64,000 bases of DNA from IMG/VR virus record IMGVR_UViG_3300031758_003913, positions 1 through 64,000 of that record; one strand, 5' to 3'. The position numbers were made by a program, and so were the translations under genes. This DNA comes from an uncultured virus (IMG/VR IMGVR_UViG_3300031758_003913) (Duplodnaviria; Heunggongvirae; Uroviricota; Caudoviricetes). The notes below the pieces were generated by a model. The model saw only the letters and a list, made by a program, of their open reading frames with translations, did no database searches and had not been told where the DNA came from. Shown in pieces: positions 21,658-64,000 of this stretch. Each line of letters starts with the position of its first letter. Within the stretch, counting starts at the first letter, position 1.

Positions 21658-22803
21658 ATGGCTTTGAAATTAAGACGCGGTACTGAAGCAGAACGTGTTA
21701 CTGCATTCGTAGACATAGGCGAAATTGTCTACGTTACTGATACGAAAAAGTTATTTGTAGGCGACGGAGCTACTACAGGTGGTATTCTCGTTGGCCCAAC
21801 TGCCCTTTCAACTGAAACAAGTCCACTGCTGGGCGGCAATTTAAACTTAAACGGTAATAACATAATAGGCACAGGTAACATTAATATTACTGGTAATATT
21901 ACTGCTACTGGATCTATTAACTTAGGTGACAATGCAACCGACAATATCAGTGTACTTGGTTTAATTAATTCGTCACTGACTCCAGCCATTGACGATTCTT
22001 ATAATTTAGGTACAAGTGCCAAACAGTGGCGTAATCTTTGGGCTACTCAAGCAAACGTAGACACTACGTTAGCAGTTGGTTCACAAATTATTAAACTCTC
22101 AAGCGGCTCAGCAGATAGTAATTTAGTGCTATGGGACGCAGAAACTGATACACTTACTGCAAGAGAAATCATAGGCGATTTAACAGGTTCTGTTTTTGCT
22201 GATGATTCTAGCACTCTTGTTGATTCAGTAGCTGGAAAAATTGTTGGCGAAGTTGATAATATTGCCATTACTACTAAAGATGTTAACGGTGCTACAATTA
22301 CATTATCAGGACAAAATAATAACGGTACTTTAGCAGGATTAGCTGTATATACTACTGGTACTGCGGACGATGCGTATGACGCTATGTCTATCTATGGCGC
22401 TTCTAATACTGTAGAAGGGCCAGCAGTATTGTATAGTAGATATAGAGGAACGCATGAAACACCATTGCCACTTCAAATTGGTGATAAAATTGTTAGTCAA
22501 TACTGGCTTGGTGCAGATAGCAACGGTAGTCCTGCTGTAGTAGCCGGTATTCAAATTTTTGTAGATGACACTCCGGGTGCTGGGTATATTCCAGGTAGAA
22601 TAGAATTAGGTTGTGTAAATGCTACAGAAGAACTTGTTACTATGTTATCTATAGACAGCGAGGGGATTATCGGAATACAAGATAATTCAATAGTAGCTGG
22701 TGCTGGTTCCGGCGAAGTTAATACAGGTGGAACAGTTAAATATATTAGAATTATAGTTGATGGCGTAGATTATGCACTTCCACTATATCCTCTAAATCCT
22801 TAA
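21658..22803 (+). CDS. Tail fibre-like virion structural protein
   Basis: N-terminal LRRGT...GEIVYVTDTKKLFVGDG fibre module; G/N/T-rich beta repeats; ATAAATA upstream at 21621. Confidence 0.7.
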   Translation: MALKLRRGTEAERVTAFVDIGEIVYVTDTKKLFVGDGATTGGILVGPTALSTETSPLLGGNLNLNGNNIIGTGNINITGNITATGSINLGDNATDNISVLGLINSSLTPAIDDSYNLGTSAKQWRNLWATQANVDTTLAVGSQIIKLSSGSADSNLVLWDAETDTLTAREIIGDLTGSVFADDSSTLVDSVAGKIVGEVDNIAITTKDVNGATITLSGQNNNGTLAGLAVYTTGTADDAYDAMSIYGASNTVEGPAVLYSRYRGTHETPLPLQIGDKIVSQYWLGADSNGSPAVVAGIQIFVDDTPGAGYIPGRIELGCVNATEELVTMLSIDSEGIIGIQDNSIVAGAGSGEVNTGGTVKYIRIIVDGVDYALPLYPLNP

Positions 22804-23294
22804 ATCGTAATAGTATTAACCTGACAGGTTATAAAATCTACTGTAGAAGCATTAGCGGCGCAGTGGAATGAACGATGATCAAATAACCAAACATCTCCAC
22901 ACTTCCATCTTGTTATAGTCTTTTCTTCAAAATCAACAGAATGTCCAAGTACCCAATCATTTAGAAAAATTAAATATCTTCTACATTTTTCTATATCAAC
23001 ATTGTACTTGGTTCTTAGTTTATAAAACTCATCAGTATGAACAGGTAGGACTTGACCCGGTACTAGGTTAGTCCAAGATACTGTACCTTCTGTTGTACCT
23101 AGCTCAATTAGAAATTTATTCCAATACTCTGGTAAATCATTGTCAAATGCTTGCAAGAGAGGTTTGGCATTTTGAAAATTAGGATGATTCCAATAATCTC
23201 TTACATTAGTGTTAAGAGGTGACATAACTGGAAAGACAAATTTTTCTAAATCAGTTGACCAAAAATCTTTTATATTTGTTACAAACTCAATCAT
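22800..23294 (-). CDS. Fe(II)/2OG-type oxygenase (Asp/Asn beta-hydroxylase-like)
   Basis: PGQVLPVHTD ... HCAAN; start moved to 23294. Confidence 0.7.
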   Translation of the reverse strand: MIEFVTNIKDFWSTDLEKFVFPVMSPLNTNVRDYWNHPNFQNAKPLLQAFDNDLPEYWNKFLIELGTTEGTVSWTNLVPGQVLPVHTDEFYKLRTKYNVDIEKCRRYLIFLNDWVLGHSVDFEEKTITRWKCGDVWLFDHRSFHCAANASTVDFITCQVNTITI

Positions 23295-24349
23295 GTATAA
23301 TCCTCTAACGATCCTGTTCTTCTTAAATCTAAAGTAGTACAATGAAGTCCGCCACTAAGTGTTTGAGCGTGCCGCATTTTTACATGTACTACATCAAATC
23401 CTTGTTTTTCTAAAACTCTTGTTAAATTAATCTGATCTTCGCCTACTATTACTGTACTAGGGTTTATACTTAAAATATTCATTCCTATATACGGACTGCA
23501 CGGACTGATACTGCCTGGTCCGGTTTCTGTAGTAGGATTAATATTTACATCTTTAAACCATATCTTATCCCATTTTTCAAATATCTTAGGACAATTTTCA
23601 GGCGTGACTCTAGTACTATTTAACAAAACTTTCCCCGGACTTAAAGGAACGATGGTACTATCCATATGAGCAAAACTGTAAATATGCTCTGCCGCATGTA
23701 TTCTATAACCTCTAGGTTCAAGCACATTTTTTAACCATTGCATTCCTAAATGATTACCAGTGTTTGAAATTTGAAATAAAATATCTTTACCCAAACGCAC
23801 ACAGTTAGGAGCATCAAATATAGGTTCTAAATTTAATAAACTTGGCTTTCCTTGTATATCTTCAAATTGATAGCCTTCATCTAATAGAATAGGTTTAGGT
23901 GCTGCTATCCATTCAACTCCATCTCGAACTGCTTCTAACATTATATCGTGATATGCCCTAGTTTCAAAATATCTAGAACGACACCCACTAGGCGTTTCAA
24001 TAATTAGATTTTTTAACGGCAACAGTAAGTCTCTAGGACACCAAGTATACCAACCAGTAGTTTGCCACTCTGGTGTACTAAACTGTTTACTGTGATCTAA
24101 CGGCTTTGGTCTATGTACTTTAACTCCGGCTTTTCTTAGCGCGGTAGCCAATCCTTCCAAGTCTTCGTTAGCTTCATCAATTAACCATTGAGGATATGCT
24201 CCTTCTAAAGGTTTAACACTATCCATACTATAGTTACTGTAGCTCATATTCATGGTGCTTCTGTCCACTGTAGGCACTCGTGCATGATCAGCTATGCCTA
24301 CAATTATTTCTTCTAATGGATCCCAATGATTATTTGTTGATATTTTCAA
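23291..24349 (-). CDS. Amidinotransferase (glycine / inosamine-phosphate amidinotransferase family)
   Basis: WDPLEEIIVG, CPRD, FDA, HMDST, GGLHCTTLD; TTG start after AAGGA (track start 24382). Confidence 0.92.
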   Translation of the reverse strand: MKISTNNHWDPLEEIIVGIADHARVPTVDRSTMNMSYSNYSMDSVKPLEGAYPQWLIDEANEDLEGLATALRKAGVKVHRPKPLDHSKQFSTPEWQTTGWYTWCPRDLLLPLKNLIIETPSGCRSRYFETRAYHDIMLEAVRDGVEWIAAPKPILLDEGYQFEDIQGKPSLLNLEPIFDAPNCVRLGKDILFQISNTGNHLGMQWLKNVLEPRGYRIHAAEHIYSFAHMDSTIVPLSPGKVLLNSTRVTPENCPKIFEKWDKIWFKDVNINPTTETGPGSISPCSPYIGMNILSINPSTVIVGEDQINLTRVLEKQGFDVVHVKMRHAQTLSGGLHCTTLDLRRTGSLEDYT

Positions 24350-24359
24350 AATATTTCCT

Positions 24360-24935
24360 TTAAATAAAAAATCTCTTATCAATATTTAAGATTAACATAG
24401 TCCACCACTCGTTAGTGTGGTTCCATGCTTGATGCGGTGTTTGTGGGTCAAATGTTACATCTACATTATGACCATGAGAATAAACTTCACCGTTTACTTC
24501 TATACCTACCATGTTAGAATCTGTCGACGGTACTGTAATTCCAAAACAGGCATTCCAAACTCCTATTGTATCGTTTGAATCTTTCGCTACATATTCGCCG
24601 TGTACATGTAATGGTAAGATTGAATTTGGAGTCATAAAGAAAACAAACCCAGCAGAATATCCTTTTAAATTTGTTAGTATATCTGATTCTTCTTTTAATA
24701 GTTTGCCTAAGTTTGGTTTTCCATCAAAGGGCAAAGCACCGCAAAGAATTTTAACATTTTTTCTATCTCTAGGATGTATGTCTGTTAAATCAGGAGCCGG
24801 GTCAACTTGAGTCAAGTCGTACATATCACTTGACATAGTTTCTCTAAATTCTGCAACTTTTTTAGCCATTGAATCTACAGCACTAATAATCTTGTTATAT
24901 TCAATATACCGTTTACAGCTTATAGTTGATGTCAT
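24360..24935 (-). CDS. Asp/Asn beta-hydroxylase-like oxygenase
   Basis: PNSILPLHVH ... FDPQTPHQAWN. Confidence 0.7.
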   Translation of the reverse strand: MTSTISCKRYIEYNKIISAVDSMAKKVAEFRETMSSDMYDLTQVDPAPDLTDIHPRDRKNVKILCGALPFDGKPNLGKLLKEESDILTNLKGYSAGFVFFMTPNSILPLHVHGEYVAKDSNDTIGVWNACFGITVPSTDSNMVGIEVNGEVYSHGHNVDVTFDPQTPHQAWNHTNEWWTMLILNIDKRFFI

Positions 24936-25552
24936 TTGAAAAGCCTTTTTAGTAATGGACTACTATCATCAACACGCATACTACAAACAATTCTTAAACT
25001 ATCAGTAGGATTATGCACTGCATGGGGAACACTAACTTTTAGAAATGCAGGTTTGTTAAGAGTAAATTTATCCACTTCAACTACATTACTGTAATCGACA
25101 CAACCTCCAAAATATACATGAGTGTCTTTTGTGTGTTTATTTGGATCTATAAAATCATAAAAAAACGTAGTACTGTTTTCACAATTTATTAATGGAATAT
25201 TAAATACATATCTTGGAGAAAACAATGTAGGAGCTGATTCCTTTAACAAATGTTCATCGTCATCCTTACTGTCAACATGTATATAAATTGTTTTTGGATC
25301 ATTCATGTCTGTAGAATTTAAATCAGTAGGGGGGAAAGATATAAAAATTAACTGTTTTATGTATAGACCAAGCTGTGCATAATCGTCAATAACATCTTTT
25401 AAATCCATAGAAAATTCATCATAGTTTAACGCAGCCCATGATTGATTGTCAGTTACGATGTCAGCCATCTTTAATTGTCTATATGCTAACAATTTTTTTT
25501 GATGTTCTAACCAATTTGGATAATCAAAATACTGATAAAATTCTGAACTCAT
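24932..25552 (-). CDS. Fe(II)/2OG-type (DSBH) oxygenase-like protein
   Basis: IHVD ... NIPLINC ... VPHAVHN...R. Confidence 0.65.
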   Translation of the reverse strand: MSSEFYQYFDYPNWLEHQKKLLAYRQLKMADIVTDNQSWAALNYDEFSMDLKDVIDDYAQLGLYIKQLIFISFPPTDLNSTDMNDPKTIYIHVDSKDDDEHLLKESAPTLFSPRYVFNIPLINCENSTTFFYDFIDPNKHTKDTHVYFGGCVDYSNVVEVDKFTLNKPAFLKVSVPHAVHNPTDSLRIVCSMRVDDSSPLLKRLFK

Positions 25553-25567
25553 AAATAACTCCTTTTA

Positions 25568-26500
25568 TTAATTATGTAATAGATGGTTAATGACATAAGT
25601 TTTATTTGGAATGTTTGTTTCGCTAATCAAATTAATAATTTGTTCCTTTTGTTCAAAATTAGAAATATCTAAATGTGTAGGATATGTTAAAACATTTACT
25701 ATCCACGGTACTCCTAATTGTTGTATAAAGGATTCAAGCTCCTTTATTCCGTGCCAGTTATTTAAATGTAACACTGTATTCACTTCTAGATCAAAGTTAG
25801 ATTTAGATATCTGTTCTATAAAACTTAAAATATCTTCCCACTTACTTCCAGATCTAACTTTGTTATTTAGATCTTTGTACCCATCAATACTTAACGTAAA
25901 TTTTACCGATTTAAACTGATGTAAAAAATTAATAAATTCTTCTTTTAACAAAAACATTCCGTTAGTGTTGTAAATTATTTCAACTGCTGCTGGATTTTCA
26001 ATTAGTTTTAAAAACTTTTCATGCCGGTTGGTCATTAAAGGTTCACCGCCTAAAAAGAGTATTTTTTTAATACTAGACGGAACTTTAACAATCTCATCAA
26101 CTGAACGATAGTGAGTAATCTTGTTTGCAGTAGGGTTAAGTTTTTTACTCCACTCGGAACTAAAATCACTCCAGCATCCGTCACAGGTTAAATTACATAT
26201 ATTGTCAAACCCTATTTCTAAAAATTCTAATTCAACTGTGTCAGTAGTATATTCTTTGTTTAATCGTTGTCGAAGACTTTGCCTACCGTTGGCATCTTCG
26301 TAATAGCATTTTTCGCAACCTTGGATAAATTCACCGTTTAAACTTTTTTTTCTAAGTTCTTTATATGCACTGGACTCTAATATATGAATTAAATCGCCGT
26401 TGAAATTATCTACAGGATTCTTAAATCTACAACAGGGAAATATTTTGTTATCGCTACGAACATTAGTATGTTTCCAGAAAGCTGCACATTTAGAATCCAT
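25568..26500 (-). CDS. Radical SAM protein with N-terminal twitch domain
   Basis: C..PCC..CEKC then CNLTCDGC, GGEP, TNG, SIDG. Confidence 0.9.
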   Translation of the reverse strand: MDSKCAAFWKHTNVRSDNKIFPCCRFKNPVDNFNGDLIHILESSAYKELRKKSLNGEFIQGCEKCYYEDANGRQSLRQRLNKEYTTDTVELEFLEIGFDNICNLTCDGCWSDFSSEWSKKLNPTANKITHYRSVDEIVKVPSSIKKILFLGGEPLMTNRHEKFLKLIENPAAVEIIYNTNGMFLLKEEFINFLHQFKSVKFTLSIDGYKDLNNKVRSGSKWEDILSFIEQISKSNFDLEVNTVLHLNNWHGIKELESFIQQLGVPWIVNVLTYPTHLDISNFEQKEQIINLISETNIPNKTYVINHLLHN

Positions 26501-27677
26501 CAGGTATTCTCCTAATGAGATACGGATAACCTTTGATATTAGCATATGGCTGGATATCATCTGACGAAACATTTAAATCGTGCTTTAAGAATTTAAAAAT
26601 TTTATCCTGATTGTTTACATGATTAAAATACATTTGATAATTATATTCTACGTCTTTTTCTATAGCATCTAAATTATTTTTTATATTTTTTAATAAGTAT
26701 TCTGTATTTTTGACTACAGCATCTAGTCTTTCATTTTCATCTTCAATATAGGCGTAATCTTTGATTAACAAATATTCTTCAAATGTTTTAAATCCAAGTT
26801 TCTTAATATATCTAAATTGATCAGGGTGCCCGGCAAATATAAAAGGATGACGATGTAAAAAAGTTCGCCATGTTTTTTCTGTAATGAAACTCCAATCTTC
26901 AGACCAAAAATTTGGACCTTCAGATATAACACTAAAAAGTGTATCGCTATATACTTTAGAATCAATATGACTGGGTAATTGAACCCAGTCAATATTAACT
27001 ACATCATACCATAGCGGTGCATTTTCCGTTGAAGTATACGATCCATAGAATGGCTTACACGTTTCATATCTATTATCAAAAGATCTTTCACAATTAATTA
27101 AAAATGTATTGTAGTGTTCATCACTATAATGTTTAAGATATTCTCTACACCAAGATTGATCCATAGGTGTCCATGGGCCAAAAAAACTCCACTCAGCAGT
27201 GTCTAATAAATCTTTATCATAGTACTTGCTCAATAGACCTATACGATTAGGTCTATTTGGCATGCCAGTTAAAAAGAGAAACTTTGTATTTTCAGGATTG
27301 AATTTAGGTAATACATTTAGATCAGGATAGCTATTAATTAATAATCTAAGATTAAAATCTAAAAACAGGTATTCAAAGGGACAATTATCTAATGTTTCGC
27401 CATGGCCACTTATTAGAATTATTTTTTTAATTCCAGCATTGTAAGCATAATCTTTTATTTCGTTTAGGTGCAAAATAAACTCTTTGTATCTATACTTAGG
27501 TTGTAAAAACCCATCCATTAGATAAAGCCCTACAACAGTATCAACATTTTCATCTATGGCTTGATCAATGTCTTTTTTAATTAAATCAGTTTTAATTTTA
27601 TCAAATTGTTCATGGGTGTAATGATTGTGATCACACATCCATTCAAAATTTATAATTTTAGATTTTGACATATTCAT
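26490..27677 (-). CDS. Putative glycosyltransferase-like protein (ITEK family)
   Basis: SVISEG...FITEKTW...HPFI..G...GFKTF, similar to GT10-like C-terminal motifs; inference. Confidence 0.5.
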   Translation of the reverse strand: MNMSKSKIINFEWMCDHNHYTHEQFDKIKTDLIKKDIDQAIDENVDTVVGLYLMDGFLQPKYRYKEFILHLNEIKDYAYNAGIKKIILISGHGETLDNCPFEYLFLDFNLRLLINSYPDLNVLPKFNPENTKFLFLTGMPNRPNRIGLLSKYYDKDLLDTAEWSFFGPWTPMDQSWCREYLKHYSDEHYNTFLINCERSFDNRYETCKPFYGSYTSTENAPLWYDVVNIDWVQLPSHIDSKVYSDTLFSVISEGPNFWSEDWSFITEKTWRTFLHRHPFIFAGHPDQFRYIKKLGFKTFEEYLLIKDYAYIEDENERLDAVVKNTEYLLKNIKNNLDAIEKDVEYNYQMYFNHVNNQDKIFKFLKHDLNVSSDDIQPYANIKGYPYLIRRIPDGF

Positions 27678-28572
27678 CTAAGCACTCTGTATCTTCCATG
27701 TGTAAAAAATTATGTAATCCTAATCTGTTAGTAGCTCTATCACGATTGTATTCCTGCCATTCAGAGCCGCCTATTCCAAACAACACAGTATTGCTAGGAG
27801 TTACATTTAATTTTTTACAGATTTCAATTTGTTTATTTTTATACTTATTAACTATGTAGTCAGAATCAAAATGATTAATAAGATTAAGTCCTATACTTGC
27901 TGCTAATCTATTTGTGTAGCCACTTTTGTTATACACAAATAACAAATCGTCATTATCAATCCTTGAAAGACGCATACCTATTCTAATATGAGCTACTGGA
28001 AAAGTTTTAGATAAACTAAAGATGATTTCTTTTATACAAGGTCTTGTAAAATCAAAATTTATATTACTACAAATACCAAAGTAGCAACAATCAAGTACTA
28101 CAGGAATATTTAGTTTGTCACATTGATCTAAAATATCATTAAGTAAAGGATGCTGATCGCCTGTATCAGAAAAAGGTTGACTAATTATTACTACGTCATT
28201 GGCATCAAGCGCATCATCCTCTAAGTATTTCCAATTAAATCTATCATCTCTCCAAGCTAATTTATGATAAACATACTCGCCTTTAAAACATCGAAATCTT
28301 CTATGAGAATAATTCATATAAAATTTTTCAAACGCTTCAGATGTCCCTTGCGAAAAACATTTGAATGGATACTGATCAATACCAGTTACTTTGTTATTTG
28401 TTGTAGTCAATATCCATTCTACATACTTGCTAAGGAATTGTTCGTTAATTGTTTGATCGTTTAATGTTTGTGTTGAGATACTACAATTATTGATAAAAGA
28501 TAATGTTTCTTTGTCTTGTATAGCTGTAGAATGTCCAAAAGGAAGATGCCGTTTATCGTAATTATTTTTCAT
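27658..28572 (-). CDS. PLP-dependent fold-type I enzyme (aminotransferase-like)
   Basis: LDCCY, FSLSKTF (PLP lysine), RIG. Confidence 0.75.
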   Translation of the reverse strand: MKNNYDKRHLPFGHSTAIQDKETLSFINNCSISTQTLNDQTINEQFLSKYVEWILTTTNNKVTGIDQYPFKCFSQGTSEAFEKFYMNYSHRRFRCFKGEYVYHKLAWRDDRFNWKYLEDDALDANDVVIISQPFSDTGDQHPLLNDILDQCDKLNIPVVLDCCYFGICSNINFDFTRPCIKEIIFSLSKTFPVAHIRIGMRLSRIDNDDLLFVYNKSGYTNRLAASIGLNLINHFDSDYIVNKYKNKQIEICKKLNVTPSNTVLFGIGGSEWQEYNRDRATNRLGLHNFLHMEDTECLDEYVKI

Positions 28573-28640
28573 GATAGTCTAACAGATATAGTCATAAACT
28601 TATTTATAACCATACACTATTGATAACTACGAATATGATG

Positions 28641-29849
28641 CTAGCCTAATTTTTTGAGGTCGGCAACGGGCCTAATCAAATTTTCATAGCCGGTTGTACT
28701 AAAAAATTTTGAAAACTCAGCATCAGGAATATTGTATTTTGATTTTAAAGATGTTAGTAGACAATTTTGATCATTGGCTAGTTTTAAGAATAAGTTAAAA
28801 TTATGTTCAATATCTTGTTGTATTTCTTTTTGATGATAAGTTTGGTGTTTTAAAAAATGTTCTACATTTTTAACAATCAATTCAATTCTTTCTTTTTCAT
28901 CTTCCACCTGTGCATAATTTTGAATAAGCATATATTTTTCAAATGTTTCAAATCCCATTTGTTTAATATATCTAAACTGTTCAGGCGGGCCTGCAAATAT
29001 AAAAGGATGCTTATAAATTATTGTCCGCCATGTTTTTTCTGTAATAAATTTATAATCAGGCGACCAATAATTTGGACCTTCAGAAATTATACTTAACGAA
29101 GTTTCATCGTAAACTTCAGGATCTATGTATATAGGATTTTTCCAAAAATCAGTATGAACTATTTCGCCCCACTTTTCAAGATCGCCTTCTTCGTACGGTG
29201 CATAGTCTTGAAAAAAGTTAGCCATTTCTTGATATTTTTCATCTATTGAGCTAGTACAGTTTTTTAAAAAAGTTTCGTACTCTTCATCTGAATAATGTGA
29301 TAATAAATTTCTGCAATAATTTTTATCTTCTTGGGATAACGGAATAAAAAATGACCATTTACCATTTATTAAAAGATTGTTTTCATACAACTTACTTAAT
29401 AAATAAATTCTATTTAATCTAGTAGGAATTCCACCTAAGAATAAAAACTTATTATTGATAGTTTTTGATTTTCTAGGAATATTATTAATGATGTTGTAAC
29501 ATACTCTTAAAGGATATGATGAGTATATTACCTCAAATGGAAGATTGTTTAAAATACTACCATTTTCTATACTATACTGATTGTTAAAACTTTCTCCAAG
29601 GCCTGACAATAGAATAACTTCTAAATTGTATTTGTCAGCTATTTTTTTAATTTCTAAAAACAGTTGTTGATTATGACAATCATGCGGATAAATTCCCTCC
29701 ATTAAAAACATTCCAAAAATGGTAGTTACTCCGTCAGCTACTGCTTCTTGAAATTCTAATTCAAGTAGTTTTGGTAATACAACATTGACGCTTAGGTCAG
29801 TATCCCACAGTAATTCAAAGTTTATTAATCTTCCTTGTTTCATAATCAA
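28641..29849 (-). CDS. Putative glycosyltransferase-like protein, paralog of 26490-27677
   Basis: Shared KFLFLxG.P.R.NRI.LLSK and ISEGPN.WS...FITEKTWRT. Confidence 0.5.
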   Translation of the reverse strand: MIMKQGRLINFELLWDTDLSVNVVLPKLLELEFQEAVADGVTTIFGMFLMEGIYPHDCHNQQLFLEIKKIADKYNLEVILLSGLGESFNNQYSIENGSILNNLPFEVIYSSYPLRVCYNIINNIPRKSKTINNKFLFLGGIPTRLNRIYLLSKLYENNLLINGKWSFFIPLSQEDKNYCRNLLSHYSDEEYETFLKNCTSSIDEKYQEMANFFQDYAPYEEGDLEKWGEIVHTDFWKNPIYIDPEVYDETSLSIISEGPNYWSPDYKFITEKTWRTIIYKHPFIFAGPPEQFRYIKQMGFETFEKYMLIQNYAQVEDEKERIELIVKNVEHFLKHQTYHQKEIQQDIEHNFNLFLKLANDQNCLLTSLKSKYNIPDAEFSKFFSTTGYENLIRPVADLKKLG

Positions 29850-30679: not shown

Positions 30680-30683
30680 AAAC

Positions 30684-30695
30684 TATTTATAAATA
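30684..30695. promoter_or_regulatory. Palindromic bidirectional late promoter TATTTATAAATA
   Basis: TATAAATA on both strands between divergent genes. Confidence 0.65.
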
Positions 30696-30722
30696 CAAGA
30701 TATAAAATACTAGGTTAATGAC

Positions 30723-34828: not shown

Positions 34829-35315
34829 ATTCTGTAATTTGTAAAACAAGTCTAGGTATCTGGCCTATGTTAGCAGCGCCATGTAAATCTGTAGAACTAG
34901 TGTAAACATATACATCACCTTTTTTATAATTAGTGATCATTTCATCTTTGTATACAAATATATGCCCAGGATGATAGTCCTGTAACGGAACCCAATATCG
35001 CAAACAGCTAACATCGTGTGTATGAGGATCAGTGTGCATTGGCATGAATTGTCCTGGGGTTAATTTAGTAATCCACCAATGAATTTTTCCATTGGTCCAA
35101 GGCGGGGAAATTATTATATCTAGATCTTTACTTTCGTAAATCCACCAATTAACTGCGTTTAGATCGTATCCAGAAGTTGCATATCGCTGATATTCTTCTT
35201 GTTCAATTTTAGAATTTGGCGGCCAATCTCTGGGGCGGGCTTGTCCTGGAGTTTCTAATATTTTAGAAATCCAATTGTCATTTATCCAAGAACTATAATT
35301 TCCTATATATTTCAT
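34818..35315 (-). CDS. Fe(II)/2OG-type oxygenase
   Basis: PGQFMPMHTD ... LHGAAN...R. Confidence 0.75.
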   Translation of the reverse strand: MKYIGNYSSWINDNWISKILETPGQARPRDWPPNSKIEQEEYQRYATSGYDLNAVNWWIYESKDLDIIISPPWTNGKIHWWITKLTPGQFMPMHTDPHTHDVSCLRYWVPLQDYHPGHIFVYKDEMITNYKKGDVYVYTSSTDLHGAANIGQIPRLVLQITEYDI

Positions 35316-54480: not shown

Positions 54481-54486
54481 ATTATT

Positions 54487-54515
54487 ATTATACTATTATT
54501 TTAAAGTATTGTCAA
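54487..54515 (-). promoter_or_regulatory. Consensus sigma70 promoter TTGACA-N17-TATAAT, probably giving a leaderless mRNA
   Basis: Perfect match on the minus strand; -10 box ends 6 nt before the ATG at 54480. Confidence 0.8.
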
Positions 54516-55479: not shown

Positions 55480-56275
55480 TTTTAACTCCATGTCCTTCAA
55501 AATTATTAAACGACGGTAATAGTAGCATTGCTTTTACCTTTGTATCCATAGACTGATCTTCAATAGTTATTTTTATGCGTTTTTTTTCAGTTTTTAATAT
55601 TTTTGTTTCATCATATCCTAACTCAGCTAAATCAAAATTAGCTTCAATCTTAGTTTTTCTAAAAAACTTTTTCATCTGTGCATGTGTCTCGACCATTGCA
55701 GGTTTAATAGTAAATCCATCTAAATGAACATGCGGTATATAATGACCGCGTTCATCTGTAACTACTAAAAAAACTTTAGAGCTATTAGTATATTCAGCAA
55801 TTTCTTCTACTGTGTTAAATTCTTTTATAAATTGCATAGGTTGACCGCCTGTATTAAAACAAAGACAATCTATTTCATCGGGTGCAAAATATTTTATAAT
55901 TGCTTGTCTTGTTCCACCCGGATGTATTCTCCAGTCAAGAGACACAGGACTCCAATGAACCCCAACTGGCTTTCTTAGACCGCCTTCAGTAAAAAATCCA
56001 TGTGTAAGCCAAACTGCTTTTACATATCCTTCAATTTCTTCTTGATATCTGTTATACACAGGATCTGTGTGAGATAACCATATAGTAGGTTCTACTTCTT
56101 TATTAATACCGTATTGAAAATAATTTATTAAGTAGTTTTCGTAGTTTTTAATTCTGGGCCAATAACTTAACATGTGTTTAGACACACGAGCTATACCTAA
56201 TATTTCGTCAGGTTTCTTAATATTCCAAAATTCATTTCCAGCATTTTCCCATATACCATTAATAAAATTAGCCAT
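55466..56275 (-). CDS. Hypothetical protein
   Basis: ORF track; IHPGGTR motif; no family assigned. Confidence 0.7.
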   Translation of the reverse strand: MANFINGIWENAGNEFWNIKKPDEILGIARVSKHMLSYWPRIKNYENYLINYFQYGINKEVEPTIWLSHTDPVYNRYQEEIEGYVKAVWLTHGFFTEGGLRKPVGVHWSPVSLDWRIHPGGTRQAIIKYFAPDEIDCLCFNTGGQPMQFIKEFNTVEEIAEYTNSSKVFLVVTDERGHYIPHVHLDGFTIKPAMVETHAQMKKFFRKTKIEANFDLAELGYDETKILKTEKKRIKITIEDQSMDTKVKAMLLLPSFNNFEGHGVKIERT

Positions 56276-57230
56276 TCCATTTACTCCACATACGTTCTAA
56301 CATAGGAAAATAACCAATATCAGTATGTCTGTAGTCGTATTCTATGCGTTTTTTATTAAATTCAATTGAGTAAAAATCTGTATATTCTTTAAAAAAATCT
56401 ACTGCCTCAGTATATGGCATATCAATAATTTTTCCCACAGGTGCATAACCAAGTGCAAGCTGTTCGTCTGTAGGATCTACTCCTCTTGCTTCTAACCATT
56501 TTGTAAAATTGTCATCCATAGGCAATTCATAGCCTGTTCCAAAGTAACAATTAAACTCGCCGCTGATTATTCTGTGTTCTGAAATGCCATTTGCTTCTAC
56601 TATATTATCATTGTCAAGATATGCTTCGTACCATGTCTTGCCTGTTTGCGCATAATGAAGATAAACTAAACCATCAGTAATGTCTCTAGTAAAATTTCGT
56701 TTTTCTTCTAGAGGAATTTCAATACGATCTGTTACTCCAAGTACATTATAATAAAAATATCCGTTGGTCCATTCAGGGCTATTTTTTTCTGTTTCATACC
56801 ATGCCTCTAATTCATGGCAACAATGGTTAAGCATAGATATTGCATTTCTTGTTTCCCCATTAGCTTTAGCTAAAACAGTACCTGGTTTCCATAATTGTCC
56901 TTGTGTTATTTCAAAATGATGATGTAGAACATTAAGAAGATCTTGATTGTGTTCGTATCTTAAAGAACTAAAATCTTCATTAATTCTATATGCTTTATAA
57001 TAATTTATTGTTTGGATACTCCTATCTAAATCATTACAAATATGTTCTCGCGTTCTGCAATCGTTATGAAACCCTAACAAACTAAAATTCTTTTGAAATA
57101 TTTTGTTATTATGTGTTAGTAATAAATGATCTAATTGTTTAGTCCATGCAGATGCCAATGCTGTATCATCAGGTTTAATCTGAAGATATTTTATTTGATT
57201 ATCTTTATTTCTAAAACCAAGCTCTATCAT
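56268..57230 (-). CDS. Hypothetical protein
   Basis: LNVLHHHFE, LNHCCHELE (possible metal site); start moved to 57230. Confidence 0.7.
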   Translation of the reverse strand: MIELGFRNKDNQIKYLQIKPDDTALASAWTKQLDHLLLTHNNKIFQKNFSLLGFHNDCRTREHICNDLDRSIQTINYYKAYRINEDFSSLRYEHNQDLLNVLHHHFEITQGQLWKPGTVLAKANGETRNAISMLNHCCHELEAWYETEKNSPEWTNGYFYYNVLGVTDRIEIPLEEKRNFTRDITDGLVYLHYAQTGKTWYEAYLDNDNIVEANGISEHRIISGEFNCYFGTGYELPMDDNFTKWLEARGVDPTDEQLALGYAPVGKIIDMPYTEAVDFFKEYTDFYSIEFNKKRIEYDYRHTDIGYFPMLERMWSKWNG

Positions 57231-58062
57231 ATATTGCTCTTTTAATTTGCTCTGCATGTGCATGTTGAGAACGTATACCAGGATGCATTTTATCTCTAGC
57301 GCATTTATCATCAATATTAGGAAAAGGTTTTATTGTTTCATTAGGGTACATAACCTCACATAAATCGTTTAGTGGATAATCCCAAGAACATAAAATTATT
57401 TTTATATTTTTATGTTCTGCTAAATCATGTATCCAGTTTACATAAGATACTGCTTGTACTATATAATATTCCTCGTCTAAAGCAGTAAGCTGATTACTTA
57501 ATTCTTCATACTGTTGATGCGGCCATTGGGGTATAAGATTAACAATTTTACCTTGATCGTCAAGATACATTTGTCTATGCCATTGCGGCAAGGTAAACAC
57601 AGCATAATCAAGATCTATTACTTTAGAGGCAGCACTAAACGTTTTTGCCACCCTTTGTAAAGAAGATCCACCTATAGCTAAATTAAAACAATTAAGGTCA
57701 AACTGCTTTGAAACCATACTAACAAATGTATCTTTATATTCTATACCTTCACCAAATGTAAAACTACAACCAAAAAATCCAATTTTAGGTCTAGGAGAAT
57801 TAAAGTCCCATATTTCTCTAAAATTGTATCTATTGATAACGTACTCCCAATCTCCAGGTTTTACTATTTTTTCCTCTGCTGAATTCATACCTAGTACAGT
57901 TGTATAGCCGCGCTCATAGTCATCTTTAGACCATACTGATTTTTTAATACCAAATTGTGCAAGGTCGTCAATACTATTAACATGACTTGATGATGTTTTT
58001 ACATATTTTATATACTCTTCAAGAGTTAAACCTCTTATATATTTTTTTATTTTATTTAACAT
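57211..58062 (-). CDS. SGNH/GDSL-like protein
   Basis: FFGCSFTFGEG, NLAIGGSS, DKMHPG; start moved to 58062. Confidence 0.65.
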   Translation of the reverse strand: MLNKIKKYIRGLTLEEYIKYVKTSSSHVNSIDDLAQFGIKKSVWSKDDYERGYTTVLGMNSAEEKIVKPGDWEYVINRYNFREIWDFNSPRPKIGFFGCSFTFGEGIEYKDTFVSMVSKQFDLNCFNLAIGGSSLQRVAKTFSAASKVIDLDYAVFTLPQWHRQMYLDDQGKIVNLIPQWPHQQYEELSNQLTALDEEYYIVQAVSYVNWIHDLAEHKNIKIILCSWDYPLNDLCEVMYPNETIKPFPNIDDKCARDKMHPGIRSQHAHAEQIKRAIYDRAWF

Positions 58063-59311
58063 TGATAAGCTCCGGATTAAATGCAAAAACATCATTGTTT
58101 CGAATAGTATCAATCTGTTGCGATTTCCATTTAAACTTTTCAAATAGTATGCTGCGATCTTCACTATACATAAAATCAATAATATTTTGCCAACCGCTAA
58201 AAGGTATTGCTGTGTCAGCCTCAAGCTTCTTGCCATACTTTGTTATTTTTTCAGCGGCTTGATCTTTTAAATGGGCAGGAAGAACTGTTATACTATAATA
58301 ATCAGGAGTAAACAAAGGATTCAGGTGAAATCTATCAACCCAATAATTTTCAATGTTGAAGCCCATGTGCTTGTGTATTGATTTTAAAGGCATAAGATCT
58401 GCTTTATGTAAAACTTCATGCAATTCTGTTAATCTAAATATATTTAATATACTCACTGTAGGATGAAACCAATAATCAACTACTCCGCTTTCTCGTATAC
58501 GTTTTAAATTTTCAAATGTAGATTTCCAGTTACCTTTATATCTGATATATTCAAATGCATCACCTTCGCCATCGATGCTCAAACTTAAATGTACATGTTT
58601 AAATTTTTTCCAATAATCTAATACATTGTCTTTATCTCTACCTAACGTGGTCCCATTGGTACTGTATCTTAATTCAATGTCATATTTTTTACGTTCATCA
58701 AGTAGTTTTAAAATTTTCCAATGTTCAGGCATCATTAGTGGTTCGCCACCTGCAAAATGTATCTGCTTCATTGTATCTAAATTTTGTGCAATGTCGTCCC
58801 AAAATAAATCTGCTTTTTCTAAATCAATTAATCTTGTTTCAGAATATTTGTCGTATCCAGGATGTAGTTTAATCCAATCAGATGCCCACTGTGTACTAAA
58901 CAGTGGTGAACATGTTGTGCAAGCTAGATTACAATAGTTACTAAATCTAAAATCCCAGTATTTTAATTGCAATGAAGGAATGGCACCGTCTATATCTGTT
59001 TGTTCAATTAACGGTTGCATTTCTGCATACCATCTATCATTAAAGCCTGTTCGCATACTATTAAGTCCAACAGCTTCTTTAGAAGTACATCTTTCACAAG
59101 CAGTAGGCAGAGGCTTGCCTTCAAGCATATTTTTCCTCATTACTTTAGCTTGATCACTATTAACAATTTCTATAAGTTTTTGAGTTTTTACATTTCCAAA
59201 ACTATTTTCGTTTTTTAATGGGGTTTGACAACATGCAAAAGCTCTACCGTCGTTGATGACGTGCAAGTGCATCCAGGGTGCTACACAAAAATTATTAAAA
59301 TCTTTATTCAT
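58052..59311 (-). CDS. Radical SAM protein with N-terminal twitch domain
   Basis: CVAPW..ACC..CERC; CNLACTTC, GGEP. Confidence 0.92.
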   Translation of the reverse strand: MNKDFNNFCVAPWMHLHVINDGRAFACCQTPLKNENSFGNVKTQKLIEIVNSDQAKVMRKNMLEGKPLPTACERCTSKEAVGLNSMRTGFNDRWYAEMQPLIEQTDIDGAIPSLQLKYWDFRFSNYCNLACTTCSPLFSTQWASDWIKLHPGYDKYSETRLIDLEKADLFWDDIAQNLDTMKQIHFAGGEPLMMPEHWKILKLLDERKKYDIELRYSTNGTTLGRDKDNVLDYWKKFKHVHLSLSIDGEGDAFEYIRYKGNWKSTFENLKRIRESGVVDYWFHPTVSILNIFRLTELHEVLHKADLMPLKSIHKHMGFNIENYWVDRFHLNPLFTPDYYSITVLPAHLKDQAAEKITKYGKKLEADTAIPFSGWQNIIDFMYSEDRSILFEKFKWKSQQIDTIRNNDVFAFNPELINVK

Positions 59312-60599
59312 ATTGCATTTCTTTGAAAAGGTCGTAAAATTTCCAAGTGTGTTTTTTATCATAAAACTTTTTCTTATTGGCCTCGATAAATGGTTTTGTT
59401 AAAATTATACGATCATTAATTTCTTCTTTAGACAATTTAGATAATCTGTCAACTTCAGTCATTATTAAATTTAATTTAATTTTTAAATCACTAACACTAT
59501 CATATGTTTCATTAAACAGATCTACATAACTAAAATATCCTTCGTTATTAAGATAACGCATAGTAGATAAACTTCCTACTACCATAAAAGGATAACCTTG
59601 AGCAATAGCGTTCCATATATTTGGCGATACCCATAGTGCATTTGTTTCTGACAGATACGTTTTATCCATCATAGGTGTGAACGGCTCTGCTACAATTGCA
59701 AATAGACTGTCTTCTAATGACTCCGATATATTTGCGATAGTTGTCTCAGATGATAATAAATTATTAATTATATCTTTTTTTGACTGTTTGTTATTTAACA
59801 ATGACTCATTAGTAAATATTTTACTATCTAAATTTAGATTTTTGTTTTTCTTAACATTAAATTCATAGCAACCTTTATCTAATAATTCTCTAGATTCTAG
59901 TTCAGTAATAGTAGCCAGTGAATGCATTGACGATTCACCAGTTAATGCTGTAAATAGTAAACTGGGATTATTCCAATTATTGATATCAAAACTTTCACGC
60001 ACTTCATCATCTAGTAAAAATGTGACCCAATGATAATCAATATTTTGATACTTAGATTTACAAGTTAGTTGATAAGCAATTTGCCACCAATCAATACCAA
60101 ATACTTTAACCTTGTCAAATAATTCCTGATAGGAACAATTAATATCACCGGTTATTAAATAAATTTGATCAGTAGGAACTCCGTTTCGAATTAATACATC
60201 AATTCTTTCTTTAAGATTTTGCATAAAGTTATAATCACCTATCCATTGTTGATAAAGTAATAATAATTTCATTTTTCGTTTTTTAATACGAGTTAATGTC
60301 TTTTCCGGAATAATATCAATAAGACGATTCCGTATTGCTGTTTTTGAAAGCTCCAATGGATAAAATAAATTTGACGCCATATCTCTTTTAGTAAACAAAT
60401 TAACTGTGACTTCGTTTGCCTTCATTACATTATAAAAATACGTAGTTTTAAGGACTTGATCACTGTATTCTAAACTAGACATCACTGGAATATCGTACTG
60501 TTTATTAATTTTATATCGTGTTATGCCGTTAGGAACAGGTATTCCGTTAACAATATTATCGTAATATAAATTAATTGTAGGTCGCAATAGGATCATCAA
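59304..60599 (-). CDS. Divergent member of the ITEK glycosyltransferase-like family
   Basis: FAIVAE...PFMVVG...YL...GY.SY...F.E.YD; ITEK replaced by VSPN. Confidence 0.45.
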   Translation of the reverse strand: MMILLRPTINLYYDNIVNGIPVPNGITRYKINKQYDIPVMSSLEYSDQVLKTTYFYNVMKANEVTVNLFTKRDMASNLFYPLELSKTAIRNRLIDIIPEKTLTRIKKRKMKLLLLYQQWIGDYNFMQNLKERIDVLIRNGVPTDQIYLITGDINCSYQELFDKVKVFGIDWWQIAYQLTCKSKYQNIDYHWVTFLLDDEVRESFDINNWNNPSLLFTALTGESSMHSLATITELESRELLDKGCYEFNVKKNKNLNLDSKIFTNESLLNNKQSKKDIINNLLSSETTIANISESLEDSLFAIVAEPFTPMMDKTYLSETNALWVSPNIWNAIAQGYPFMVVGSLSTMRYLNNEGYFSYVDLFNETYDSVSDLKIKLNLIMTEVDRLSKLSKEEINDRIILTKPFIEANKKKFYDKKHTWKFYDLFKEMQYE

Positions 60600-62019
60600 T
60601 GTTCCTTGAGTCAGGTGTTAACACCCAGCCTTCTTTGTCTGCTAACTCTTTTATTGCTATGTCTGTATCAGGTATAGTATCAATCCAATCTGTTAAAATT
60701 TTAGGAAATACATATATGGATTTTGATCTGCGCTGATCGTACTGCTGATAAAAAGTTTTAAAGTCTCTCCACAGTGTAATAGGATTACTTGTTCTGCGAT
60801 GAGGTGCATCTACTGTAACAAGATAATCAATTAATCTTTCAATACTTGCACGTTCAAATTCGTGCCAACCTGGTAGGTCTTTATTTTGCGCATACCATGT
60901 TGACAGCTTTTTATGGCAATGATCTTTAATATGATTAGGTAGTGCCAACGGACTTTGAAAACTAGGAAATCTTAACAGATTTAAACTAACAGTAGGAGTT
61001 CTACTTTGTGTCATTTCTTTTAGCTGGTACATTTCGTCAAGAAATTCAGTAATACTAAACAAAGATAAACTATTAATAGTCATCATTATGTGTACACCTT
61101 TATAGTTTGCTTCTGTAAGAATTCTTTTTAGATTTGTTTTCCATAGTTGATAATCTAGACCATCACGTATGTATTCTGCTTGATCGCCTACTGCTTCGCA
61201 ACTTGTGTACAAATCAAAGTGTTTAATATTTTTTGATTTAGCAATTAACTTATCTATAATATCAGACTTTGCAATTAAGTTACTGTTAATAGCAAATCTC
61301 ATATCACTGTTTTGCGCTTCAAACCAATCAAATAATTTCCATGTGTTACCACTCATTAGAGGTTCGCCGCCTGTGATTCGTAACTCTTGTAGACTTTCTG
61401 ATAGTCCGTTATCCCACCATTTCCAAAATGCTTGTACATAGGGATTATCTTCATCGTCTTTGTAAGGCTGTGCCCAAGATCCATCGTGATGAAATGCGCC
61501 TGCGCCGTCACTTACAAGATTAATATAAGGACCGTTGTTTTTAATATCCTTTGCCCATGTAGTTGAGAAACTAGCATTACAATATGAACAGGCAAGATTA
61601 CATACCCTATCAAATGCAATTTCAAAAGTTTTTAAATTAGTATTTTCGTTTATGTCTGCATCAAACGCCTGTTGTAGTTCTTCATCAGTATAAATGATAC
61701 TTTTAAATGTTCGATCACTAACAGCATCTTTGCCCATGTCTTCCATTTTCCAACAGTACTCACACTCGCGAGGGCGTTCGCCAGACTGCATCATTCGACG
61801 CATTTCTTTTTTATGTTCAGTATTATGAATAGCAGTGTAATTACGTTTAATTTCCTCTATTGGAATTTTATGTGCTGGAGGATGATGGCAACTTGCTGTG
61901 GTACCACTACCTAGCCATGTAGTAGCATTATACCATTTTGCTCCGCAGAAGCTGGTGCTCTTAGTGTCTAGAACACGTTCTCTATATTGCTTTAAATCTT
62001 CTTCAGGCTTCTTGGGCAT
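60571..62019 (-). CDS. Radical SAM protein with N-terminal twitch domain
   Basis: CGAKW..SCHH..CEYC; CNLACSYC, GGEP. Confidence 0.92.
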   Translation of the reverse strand: MPKKPEEDLKQYRERVLDTKSTSFCGAKWYNATTWLGSGTTASCHHPPAHKIPIEEIKRNYTAIHNTEHKKEMRRMMQSGERPRECEYCWKMEDMGKDAVSDRTFKSIIYTDEELQQAFDADINENTNLKTFEIAFDRVCNLACSYCNASFSTTWAKDIKNNGPYINLVSDGAGAFHHDGSWAQPYKDDEDNPYVQAFWKWWDNGLSESLQELRITGGEPLMSGNTWKLFDWFEAQNSDMRFAINSNLIAKSDIIDKLIAKSKNIKHFDLYTSCEAVGDQAEYIRDGLDYQLWKTNLKRILTEANYKGVHIMMTINSLSLFSITEFLDEMYQLKEMTQSRTPTVSLNLLRFPSFQSPLALPNHIKDHCHKKLSTWYAQNKDLPGWHEFERASIERLIDYLVTVDAPHRRTSNPITLWRDFKTFYQQYDQRRSKSIYVFPKILTDWIDTIPDTDIAIKELADKEGWVLTPDSRNIDDPIATYN

Positions 62020-63385
62020 CCCATTCCTTTAATAAGTTTTTGAATTCAGGAAATATCTTAGTAAACGATTTGTTTCTTCTAAAATTATACTCTTGTATGT
62101 ATCTTACAAAGTCCTGTCTGTGTTCTACTGCTGGTTCTGCTGTGCGTAAGTAATCACAAAATCTTTGTATTTGATCCCATTCTTCTAAATAGATTCGAGC
62201 ATACTTTTCTAAGCTATAATATTTCAGCCATTTTTCACAAGCTACATAGATATCATCTGCATACTGCTGTCTTTCTTCTTTATCTAAAAGAGTGCATTGC
62301 AAATGTGGTGGCCATCTTAGATAATTTATACTGAGCGGAATTCGATTATGTTCAAAGTTTGTATTGTAATCTTTACGTAACTGCATTACTAGTTCTATAA
62401 AATCTACAAAGGTAGGTAAACTTAATATGTTAACAGTGGTCATTATAGCCACTGTTGATTGCGTATTATCTAATACTTTACAAACATTCTGCTGCCATAC
62501 ACTGATGTCTAATCCGTCTCTTGCATATTCTGCCTGAGATCCAGTGCTTTCAAGACTAGTGTAAATATCTAAACGCTTTATCACACCTCGTAAGCTATTA
62601 ATTTTATTAATTAATTTTTCAATTAATACATCAGGCACACACATGTTAGTGTTAATAGCTAATTCTAATTCAGGCTGCGGGTTTTCAATTAAGTAATCTA
62701 ATAATTTCCATAAGTCTTTACTCATAGTTGGTTCACCGCCTGTAATACGCAACACTTTTAAATGCGGTAACGTTTCTGGAAACCATTTCCAGAAAGCGTC
62801 TACATACGGATTCTCATCGTGATGTGCATACGGATAACGTCCCACTTGTTTTAACCAGCCTAAATGATGAGCTCCATTCTTAACTGGGTAAGACCCGTTC
62901 TGTTGTATATCTTCCATCCATTTAGATGAAATTTCAGGACTACAGTAAATACACGCAAAATTACATGCATTGGAAAAACTAATTTCTAAATAACTAGGAT
63001 AAACATTATCATTAGGGTCGCTGTTAGCAATTTGATCAAATTTATCCCATGCCCAGTAATCCGATGTTTTATAATGCCTATCGCTAAAATAATCTTTATT
63101 TAAATCTTCTATGTTCCAACAATAATCACACTCACTAGGTCGCTCGCCTTTGAGCATCAGTTCACGTTGGCTTTTTTTAAATTTACTGTTATGCAATGCC
63201 GCAGGATCTGCTAGTACTTCTTCGAGAGGAATCTTATGAGGAGCAGGATGATGGCAACTGTGATTGTAACCGTTTTGCAGATATAAAGTTGTTTGTAACC
63301 ATTTAGCTGTGCAAAAACTACAACTTACTGAGTTAATTTTATCTCGTTTATCTTTGAGTATTTGTATTTTTTGCTCGTTGCTCAT
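62003..63385 (-). CDS. Radical SAM protein with N-terminal twitch domain, paralog of 60571-62019
   Basis: CTAKW..SCHH..CDYC; CNFACIYC, GGEP. Confidence 0.92.
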   Translation of the reverse strand: MSNEQKIQILKDKRDKINSVSCSFCTAKWLQTTLYLQNGYNHSCHHPAPHKIPLEEVLADPAALHNSKFKKSQRELMLKGERPSECDYCWNIEDLNKDYFSDRHYKTSDYWAWDKFDQIANSDPNDNVYPSYLEISFSNACNFACIYCSPEISSKWMEDIQQNGSYPVKNGAHHLGWLKQVGRYPYAHHDENPYVDAFWKWFPETLPHLKVLRITGGEPTMSKDLWKLLDYLIENPQPELELAINTNMCVPDVLIEKLINKINSLRGVIKRLDIYTSLESTGSQAEYARDGLDISVWQQNVCKVLDNTQSTVAIMTTVNILSLPTFVDFIELVMQLRKDYNTNFEHNRIPLSINYLRWPPHLQCTLLDKEERQQYADDIYVACEKWLKYYSLEKYARIYLEEWDQIQRFCDYLRTAEPAVEHRQDFVRYIQEYNFRRNKSFTKIFPEFKNLLKEWDAQEA

Positions 63386-64000
63386 TTTGCCCTTTTAATT
63401 ATTCTTGGCGTGTTTTGATACACCGTCTTGAAAAATTTTGAACCGTCACTATCAATATTGGAAACTTCTAAACCGCACTTGTGTTTAAGTTCAGTACCTA
63501 ACCAATTAAAATAATCAGAAGTATCTGTTGTAGGACCGTATCCCTTTTCTTTCCAATACTCAGTTAAATATTCAAAGTCGCGCACCTGTGCATAATCCCA
63601 GTCAGTACAATTAGTCATGTAACAACCTTCTCGAGCACCTATTGTACTCCAAATGCCGTTATCAACGTCTACACCAATATTGCACCATATAAGTAATCGT
63701 TGATAATTTTGCCACCACACCTTTTTTATATCAGTAGTTTTAGTGCCTTGGTTGAGGCTCATTTTAACACCTTCGCGGAATCCTGCTCGCCAGGCTTGAA
63801 AAGGTGTTGCATTAGTAAAACTTTCTGAATAACTGTCGTTGAACTGATAATACTTTTCGTCAAAACAAAATTCTACTTTTCCCTTTTCGTCGTCAACTGC
63901 TGAATTTTCGTGTGTACGCATATTATTAACAAATTTACGTGTCCACATTTTTAAACCACCATTGCCATACATAAGGCCGTTGACGTGAACTTTTCCGCAC
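63382..64000 (-). CDS. GT-A-like protein, paralog of 53797-54480 (N-terminus beyond the window edge)
   Basis: Frame open to the edge; VNGLMYGNGGLK and PFQAWRAGFRE match VNDLVYGYGGVK and PFNTWKSAFRE. Confidence 0.6.
   Translation of the reverse strand, partial: CGKVHVNGLMYGNGGLKMWTRKFVNNMRTHENSAVDDEKGKVEFCFDEKYYQFNDSYSESFTNATPFQAWRAGFREGVKMSLNQGTKTTDIKKVWWQNYQRLLIWCNIGVDVDNGIWSTIGAREGCYMTNCTDWDYAQVRDFEYLTEYWKEKGYGPTTDTSDYFNWLGTELKHKCGLEVSNIDSDGSKFFKTVYQNTPRIIKRAK

Follow-up and report, generated by a model that had tools for sequence, protein, structure and literature searches.

The window analysed here comprises bases 1 to 64000 of a 78,599-base linear IMG/VR record (IMGVR_UViG_3300031758_003913; CheckV completeness, 22%) from an uncultured giant phage of lake water; the rest of the record beyond 64000 was also fetched and annotated. 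Most of the window is occupied by an island of enzyme genes rich in radical S-adenosylmethionine (SAM) enzymes, oxygenases, and glycosyltransferase (GT)-like proteins. Between 22800 and 64000, we counted 47 non-nested, tightly packed open reading frames (ORFs) of 146 to 482 amino acids, the last one cut by the window end, in agreement with a preliminary description of this DNA that reported a run of more than 41 kb with about 45 enzyme genes. ORFs are numbered g01 to g47 by coordinate, with g48 onward lying beyond the window. Enzyme genes run on to ~67.8 kb on the contig, giving an island of ~45 kb and ~52 proteins. Next come the Thr/Ser/Gly-rich paralogs g53 and g54 and then genes for three tail fibres that are paralogous to one another, a phrog_11259 protein, and a large protein (≥855 amino acids). 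In an 80%-complete relative (G001), g54 to g38 plus further radical SAM genes lie at 137-151 kb, directly after a tail fibre gene, and g37 to g01 lie at 230-261 kb; as these parts are ~80 kb apart there, the island consists of two modules.

22800..53825, six strand blocks: module B, g01-g37, syntenic with G001 230-261 kb
53797..64000, minus strand: module A, g38-g47, extending to 67.8 kb (g48-g52), then g53/g54 and three fibre genes

The contig belongs to a T4-type jumbo phage. Its left part (bases 1-22.8 kb), on the plus strand, encodes a T4-type DNA polymerase, FolE, a QueE-like enzyme, an exonuclease, and a CobS-like ATPase; G+C content falls from 0.36-0.42 there to 0.28-0.36 in the island. 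The DNA polymerase is nearest those of Phosso, Atu_ph07, and Rak2-like jumbo phages (42-48% identity). A 185.8-kb record (G002, 52% complete) is 100% identical to the contig across the 21.4 kb compared and encodes homologs of T4 gp23 (capsid) and gp20 (portal), which rules out a chimera with cellular DNA. The phage origin claimed earlier is thus borne out by the polymerase, the left-part genes, and G002, and the check then proposed, a search for capsid or terminase genes, is answered by gp23 and gp20 on this identical record. FolE and the QueE-like gene lie at 11824-14674 (plus strand), and a weak QueC-like gene lies at 43664-44347 (plus strand).

Radical SAM enzymes are represented by 15 of the 47 ORFs, all matching Pfam PF04055 at an E value of ≤0.01; 12 exceed the 29.5-bit cutoff, with g33, g36, and g45 below it. 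The CxxxCxxC motif is intact in all 15, the number that the preliminary description had given. Mutually, these paralogs are only 21-39% identical, and they form three groups: eight have an auxiliary Cys-rich domain first, five have the core first with three invariant C-terminal cysteines (group B), and two are ordinary radical SAM-SPASM proteins. Seven of the first group (g05, g13, g29, g34, g43, g45, and g46) belong to the catalogued family NF033640 (N_Twi_rSAM), exceeding its cutoff of 170 bits with 210-415 bits, whereas g33, at 54 bits, is not a member.

25568..26572, minus: g05, N-terminal-twitch radical SAM; NF033640 212 bits
33674..34849, minus: g13, N-twitch radical SAM; NF033640 233 bits
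44930..46177, plus: g29, N-twitch radical SAM; NF033640 320 bits
48820..49917, plus: g33, divergent N-SPASM radical SAM; SPASM at residues 33-83, radical SAM 21.4 bits, NF033640 54 bits
49874..51268, minus: g34, N-twitch radical SAM; NF033640 415 bits
58052..59362, minus: g43, N-twitch radical SAM; NF033640 379 bits
60571..62019, minus: g45, N-twitch radical SAM; NF033640 302 bits
62003..63385, minus: g46, N-twitch radical SAM; NF033640 325 bits, 45% identity to the RsoM2USA_349 region
29846..30679, minus: g09, group-B radical SAM (core first, three C-terminal Cys); 39% identity to S-SCSM2R ORF306
31411..32457, plus: g11, group-B radical SAM; PF04055, C-terminal Cys
46170..47057, plus: g30, group-B radical SAM; NF038073 53 bits, below its cutoff
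47750..48841, plus: g32, group-B radical SAM; PF04055, C-terminal Cys
52839..53825, minus: g37, group-B radical SAM; PF04055, C-terminal Cys
51860..52846, minus: g36, radical SAM with C-terminal SPASM; Pfam
54496..55500, minus: g39, radical SAM with C-terminal SPASM; Pfam

Cysteine positions in the alignment place the twitch domain N-terminal to the core, and Pfam SPASM precedes the radical SAM domain in g05, g29, g33, g34, and g43. This N-terminal domain can be aligned with BtrN's twitch domain (profile positions 14-101 versus BtrN residues 157-241; E value, 1e-7). The auxiliary-cluster domain is therefore homologous to that of BtrN and other twitch enzymes acting on sugars, but the domain order is reversed in the island family and the resemblance between the cores is only generic. 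Our literature search found no publication on the NF033640 family or its function in phages. One metagenome protein (P0146) is a fusion of a g06 ortholog, which is GT-B-like, with a g05 ortholog; a complex prediction for g06 and g05 gave a score of 0.02, which yields no verdict and bears neither way.

The GT-like proteins are g06, g08, g38, g47, g50, g51, and, weakly, g44 (~7 in all). The AlphaFold2 (AF2) model of g08 (predicted local distance difference test [pLDDT] score, 90) has a two-Rossmann GT-B fold, and nearly all of its top 50 VIA-align matches belong to GT-B enzymes (Z, 8.7-11.6; 255-288 residues aligned). g06 and g08 share the motif FITEKTWR and 39% identity. We take the TEK motif to mark the CAZy GT10 fucosyltransferases (PF00852); g06, g08, and g44 gave no PF00852 match, only an Atlas lead (0.78-0.79). 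Three such proteins had been proposed from the motif: g06 and g08 stand, and g44 appears to be a weak relative only. The two GT-A-like proteins proposed alongside them, g38 and g47, are supported by fold and DxD motif (D63 and D65 invariant in g47). Residues 1-155 of g47 match B4GALNT1 (Z, 10.3), STIV A197 (Z, 10.0), and SpsA (Z, 9.3).

26490..27677, minus: g06, GT-B-like "TEK" protein; 39% identity to g08, motif
28641..29849, minus: g08, GT-B-like "TEK" protein; AF2 model, VIA-align
59304..60599, minus: g44, possible distant TEK/GT-B relative; hhalign probability 73%, E 3e-5, 69 columns; Atlas PF00852 lead
53797..54480, minus: g38, GT-A-like, paralog of g47; paralogy, fold
63382..64000, minus: g47, GT-A-like, truncated by the window end; AF2 pLDDT 85, invariant DxD

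Just past the window, the profile of g50/g51 matches the GT8 enzyme glycogenin over 90 positions including the DxD motif (E value, 1.8e-5), with no Pfam match for either protein, and g49, inside the island, is a nucleoside diphosphate (NDP)-sugar epimerase/dehydratase. Profile searches of the PDB were uninformative for the g08 and g47 families and for g35. A PF00852 match within g16 (11.7 bits) was judged spurious. g12, g40, and g41 showed no relation to GT families, the Atlas returning only viral hypothetical clusters for g12. In G001 (L091:6405-8714), a 769-amino-acid protein joins a ~540-residue N-terminal part of no recognised family to a g38-like GT-A domain.

Around these two sets of enzymes, the island encodes oxygenases and group-transfer enzymes. 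Nine proteins are oxygenase-like (HxD..H type): g01, g03, g10, g14, g16, g22, g23, g24, and g26. About 10 Fe/2-oxoglutarate (2OG) oxygenases had been claimed; four of the nine are profile supported, four rest on paralogy, subthreshold PF05118 matches, and a shared triad, and one on a motif alone. Within PF05118, g10 is above the cutoff with an HxD..H triad, and g03 is above the cutoff but without the Asp; g01, g14, g23, and g24 are paralogs with an H..D..H triad and a subthreshold or no Pfam score. The odd domain pairing of g22 hints at an RNA- or single-stranded DNA (ssDNA)-linked substrate. Collagen-like G-X-Y repeats were sought in g53-g59 as a substrate of the prolyl 4-hydroxylase (P4H)-type g22, and none were found.

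22800..23342, minus: g01, cupin oxygenase-like; paralogy, subthreshold PF05118, triad
24360..24935, minus: g03, Asp/Arg-hydroxylase family; PF05118 27.1 bits
30723..31469, plus: g10, Asp/Arg-hydroxylase family; PF05118 33.9 bits
34818..35315, minus: g14, cupin oxygenase-like; subthreshold PF05118, triad
36046..36861, minus: g16, possible oxygenase; motif only (invariant H178, D180, H237)
40114..41145, minus: g22, cold-shock domain fused to P4H-type 2OG oxygenase; Pfam including PF13640
41150..42278, minus: g23 and g24, cupin oxygenase-like paralogs; paralogy, triad
42950..43693, minus: g26, Cpz10-like beta-hydroxylase; profile versus PDB 7v4f, E 4.6e-14
23291..24382, minus: g02, amidinotransferase/deiminase fold; PF02274 26.8 bits, above cutoff; homologs in S-SCSM2R and CP220
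27658..28572, minus: g07, pyridoxal phosphate (PLP) aminotransferase-like, borderline; 19.6 bits versus cutoff 19.7
35312..36046, minus: g15, SGNH-like (weak); subthreshold GDSL
47054-47725, plus: g31, SGNH-like, paralog of g15; subthreshold GDSL
36907..37878, plus: g17, class I methyltransferase; above Pfam cutoff
37868..38563, plus: g18, kinase-like (weak); E 1e-3
42271-42948, minus: g25, kinase-like, paralog of g18; E 1e-3
43664-44347, plus: g27, weak QueC-like/PP-loop protein; weak profile match

The remaining assignments of the preliminary description held in part. Its amidinotransferase (g02) is above the cutoff, its PLP enzyme (g07) borderline, and its QueC-like ATPase (g27) weak. One of its two methyltransferases is above the cutoff (g17), and the other, g35, is methyltransferase-like by motifs alone. 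Both kinase-like proteins (g18 and g25) match only weakly, both short-chain dehydrogenase/reductase (SDR) proteins (g20 and g21) are subthreshold, and three of its four SGNH-like proteins were recovered below threshold (g15, g31, and g28, the last also by GDSL), with the fourth not found. Its observation that no transporter, regulator, nonribosomal peptide synthetase, or polyketide synthase was recognised agrees with our profile scans, which matched no such family among the island proteins. Nor is there room for the precursor peptide that it had failed to recognise, since the largest intergenic gap within the island is 68 bp. No clearly membrane-bound protein was found among the 52 island proteins. 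The one strongly hydrophobic stretch is that of g42 (57211-58236, minus strand), where the longest-ORF start extends 185 nucleotides (nt) into g43 and adds a hydrophobic N terminus; the true start is probably further downstream.

The island genes are under purifying selection: the ratio of nonsynonymous to synonymous substitution rates (dN/dS) is 0.04-0.15 in the 15 of 22 gene pairs for which dS was estimable (unsaturated). Together with the intact CxxxCxxC motifs, this rules out degenerate genes, a possibility that the preliminary description had named as fatal to its proposal. Among 80 related loci, g29, g30, g32, and g34-g37 recur in 57-78; g39, g40, g42, and g44 are confined to four near-identical loci, and g41 is confined to five. 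Island content differs between relatives, and PF04055 matches number 9-19 in each of five related records. Relatives of g34 were found in 90 IMG/VR stretches and among 3884 metagenome proteins (E value, ≤1e-10) on contigs of up to 384 kb.

To place the N-terminal-twitch family, we built a quick tree of 71 members (ORFs of ≥250 amino acids passing the hidden Markov model at an E value of 1e-20), in which several branches are long. The eight window paralogs are scattered, each paired with an ortholog in other phages, and several are interleaved with Bdellovibrionota sequences. A species-genome scan with a three-paralog alignment returned 74 loci, mostly from Bdellovibrionota, where up to seven family members stand in tandem on megabase-size contigs. 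At one of three annotated Bdellovibrionota loci, the array adjoins AsnB, GT2, and UDP-glucose dehydrogenase genes. High-identity matches to metagenome-assembled genomes on contigs of 3-5 kb (L097 and L098) are probably misbinned phage DNA and were not counted as cellular evidence. One Crocinitomicaceae bin has two contigs with phage-like radical SAM copies (63% and 42% identity), which are perhaps misbinned phage DNA or a hint of the host.

The position of module A, directly behind fibre genes, is shared by the window's contig, G001, and Ralstonia phage RsoM2USA. The motif TATAAATA, read as a late-type promoter site, occurs six times in the window, versus 12.8 copies expected by chance. Three of the six stand 27-30 nt before a start codon, namely those of g07 (28 nt), g10 (27 nt), and a left-part gene, and a seventh copy lies outside the window, ~25 nt before g54. 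Five sigma-70-like promoters occupy intergenic gaps of the left part. The presence of both late-type TATAAATA sites and sigma-70-like sites suggests that the island is expressed with mixed timing. In the 43-bp divergent spacer at 30680-30722, TATAAATA is present on both strands in overlapping copies; only 4 nt separate the end of the minus-strand copy from the called g09 start, which may therefore be miscalled.

Radical SAM-rich modules of T4-type phages are already in print (available text of PMC2853527, PMC5332604, PMC7029224, and PMC12801897), and the present island is unusually large. In CP220 and CPt10, the accessible sections of Timms 2010 (PMC2853527) describe a module that combines five radical SAM genes with an amidinotransferase, and a total of 11-12 radical SAM genes per genome. 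CP220, also a T4-type phage, resembles our case in this set of five radical SAM genes, in an amidinotransferase that shares 35% identity with g02, and in two nucleotide-diphospho-sugar-transferase-domain (GT-A-like) proteins. Its module lies just behind baseplate genes, and its content differs between the sister phages; it comprises 12 coding sequences versus ~52 here, and no NF033640-type match was seen in CP220, its best matches being to g36 and g37. Behind a fibre-like gene, RsoM2USA genes 347-354 keep the order g52, g51, g50, g47, g46, g38, g35 (32-45% identity), but they include one radical SAM gene versus 15 here and are annotated as hypothetical. Cyanophage S-SCSM2R has homologs of g09, g01, and g02 among five annotated glycosyltransferases, and Vibrio phage K566 has three annotated radical SAM genes, with matches to the N-twitch paralogs. 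One environmental genome has 12 radical SAM genes, as far as the text of PMC5332604 available to us goes. The pelagimyophage host-recognition cluster, in the corresponding part of PMC7029224, is a large, fibre-adjacent, hypervariable region with glycosyltransferase and radical SAM cassettes; pelagimyophages are of another phage lineage than the Phosso/Atu_ph07/Rak2-like affinity found here. The earlier statement that no characterised pathway has this composition thus needs amendment: similar islands are published, with no function characterised for them in the portions at hand of PMC2853527 (CP220/CPt10) and PMC12801897 (S-SCSM2R).

Several features favor a pathway that builds a glycan: the GT-B, GT-A, and GT8-like folds, the NDP-sugar epimerase, the GT-radical SAM fusion, the solubility of the proteins, and the repeated adjacency to fibre or baseplate genes. 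The BtrN-like twitch domain, the glycosyltransferases around the S-SCSM2R homologs, the one Bdellovibrionota array that adjoins glycan genes, the TATAAATA sites before g07, g10, and g54, and the low dN/dS values also count in its favor. Virus-encoded virion glycosylation is known from chloroviruses and mimivirus, and work by Freeman in 2023 reportedly describes it for mycobacteriophages. As in the island, the glycosyltransferases of such viruses are soluble and encoded beside structural genes, and g47 matches PBCV-1 A64R in fold (Z, 8.4). Virion glycosylation in mycobacteriophages, chloroviruses, and mimivirus is not known to involve radical SAM enzymes. A glycan-type pathway is the probable function of the island; virion proteins are a more doubtful proposal as its target. 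Our leading explanation, held tentatively and at close to an even chance, is a cytoplasmic, phage-encoded pathway of glycan building and radical tailoring that most likely decorates virion proteins. The preliminary description had proposed hydroxylation plus a heavily decorated glycan on virion proteins; its phage setting and its intact, constrained enzymes stand, and the glycan is the best fit, while virion proteins as the target and oxygenase-made hydroxyl handles on proteins are still putative.

The analysis establishes which gene families and folds are present, how the genes are ordered and conserved, and that the DNA comes from a phage; the sugar substrates, the chemistry of each radical SAM enzyme, and the acceptor are inferred as follows. 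Activated sugars would be made in the cytoplasm and then transferred by the GT-B, GT-A, and GT8-like enzymes. The radical SAM enzymes may edit them by abstracting hydrogen atoms from sugar C-H bonds, leading to oxidation, epimerisation, deoxygenation, or C-C and C-methyl chemistry, and the Fe/2OG hydroxylases and the methyl-, acyl-, amidino-, and phospho-transferases could edit them further. The likeliest acceptor would be a virion protein from the neighbouring late genes, either a fibre or the Thr/Ser/Gly-rich g53/g54.

Some of the evidence pulls the other way. The fold matches are moderate (Z, 8-12), with nucleotidyltransferases scoring similarly to GT-A enzymes for g47, and ~10 island proteins, among them g04, g12, g19, g40-g42, g48, and g52, could be assigned to no family. 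g22 contains a nucleic-acid-binding (cold-shock) domain, and the nearest match of g26 is Cpz10, an enzyme whose substrate is a small nucleoside. Two of the three annotated Bdellovibrionota loci have no adjoining glycan genes. Fibre adjacency is not obligatory, given the ~80 kb between modules B and A in G001, and early expression of part of the island is possible in view of the sigma-70-like promoters before g52 and g38.

In a first alternative, the enzymes would remodel the host surface, altering lipopolysaccharide, capsule, or lipid A once the cell is infected, perhaps as a barrier to superinfection. We consider this unlikely. A weak OlsC match of g03 speaks for it, as does the variable content between relatives. 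PF05118 also covers lipid hydroxylases (LpxO). Pelagimyophage fibre-adjacent GT and radical SAM clusters are interpreted as host-surface remodelling in the available text of PMC7029224. Among the 52 island proteins, however, we found no flippase, polymerase, lipid-carrier transferase, or clear membrane protein, functions that host machinery could supply. Production of an aminoglycoside-like or nucleoside-like small molecule during infection is distinctly unlikely. The BtrN-like twitch domains, amidinotransferase fold, PLP enzyme, GT-B proteins, and kinase-like proteins do resemble an aminocyclitol pathway, g26 resembles Cpz10 of caprazamycin (accessible part of PMC9814697), and the authors of PMC12801897, in its available text, term the S-SCSM2R homologs antibiotic synthesis genes; yet profile scans turned up neither a cyclitol synthase nor a resistance gene or an exporter, and the repeated fibre or baseplate adjacency would be left unexplained.

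Hypermodification of DNA with sugars is improbable. The best-scoring structural matches of g08 include the alpha- and beta-glucosyltransferases of T4 (Z, 11.6 and 10.6), level with other GT-B enzymes, and FolE, the QueE-like gene, and the cold-shock domain of g22 would fit. Known glycosylated bases, however, start from ThyA- or TGT-type base-modifying enzymes (in the portion of PMC13326640 available), and searches of G001 (80% complete) and G002 (52% complete) turned up neither a PF00303 ThyA-type base hydroxylase/hydroxymethylase nor a PF01702 TGT/DpdA. A deazaguanine DNA pathway is accordingly only a candidate. Late-type promoters before some operons also speak against sugar hypermodification. 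Very improbable, finally, is a sugar-free modification of structural proteins (cross-links, epimerisation, or hydroxylation) akin to that of peptides made by the ribosome and modified after translation (RiPPs). SPASM/twitch radical SAM enzymes and Asp/Asn hydroxylases often act on peptides, and many weak NCBIfam peptide-maturase matches were seen, but neither a precursor gene nor a RiPP recognition domain was found in the island, a precursor elsewhere in the genome being possible, and six to seven GT-like proteins and the GT-radical SAM fusion would go unexplained.

Beyond this phage, we raise a wider and rather doubtful proposition: phages and Bdellovibrionota with the same radical SAM subfamilies would rewrite sugars by batteries of N-terminal-twitch enzymes, during or after glycosyl transfer. 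Since cultured carriers exist (RsoM2USA, CP220, S-SCSM2R, and K566), the question is directly testable. If virion glycan tailoring is indeed the function of the island, oxygen-independent radical chemistry would join virus-encoded glycosylation, and virion glycans would bear chemistry not yet described for any glycoconjugate, with variable cassettes tuning host range or shielding the particle. A catalogued enzyme family common in aquatic jumbo phages would thereby gain a function.

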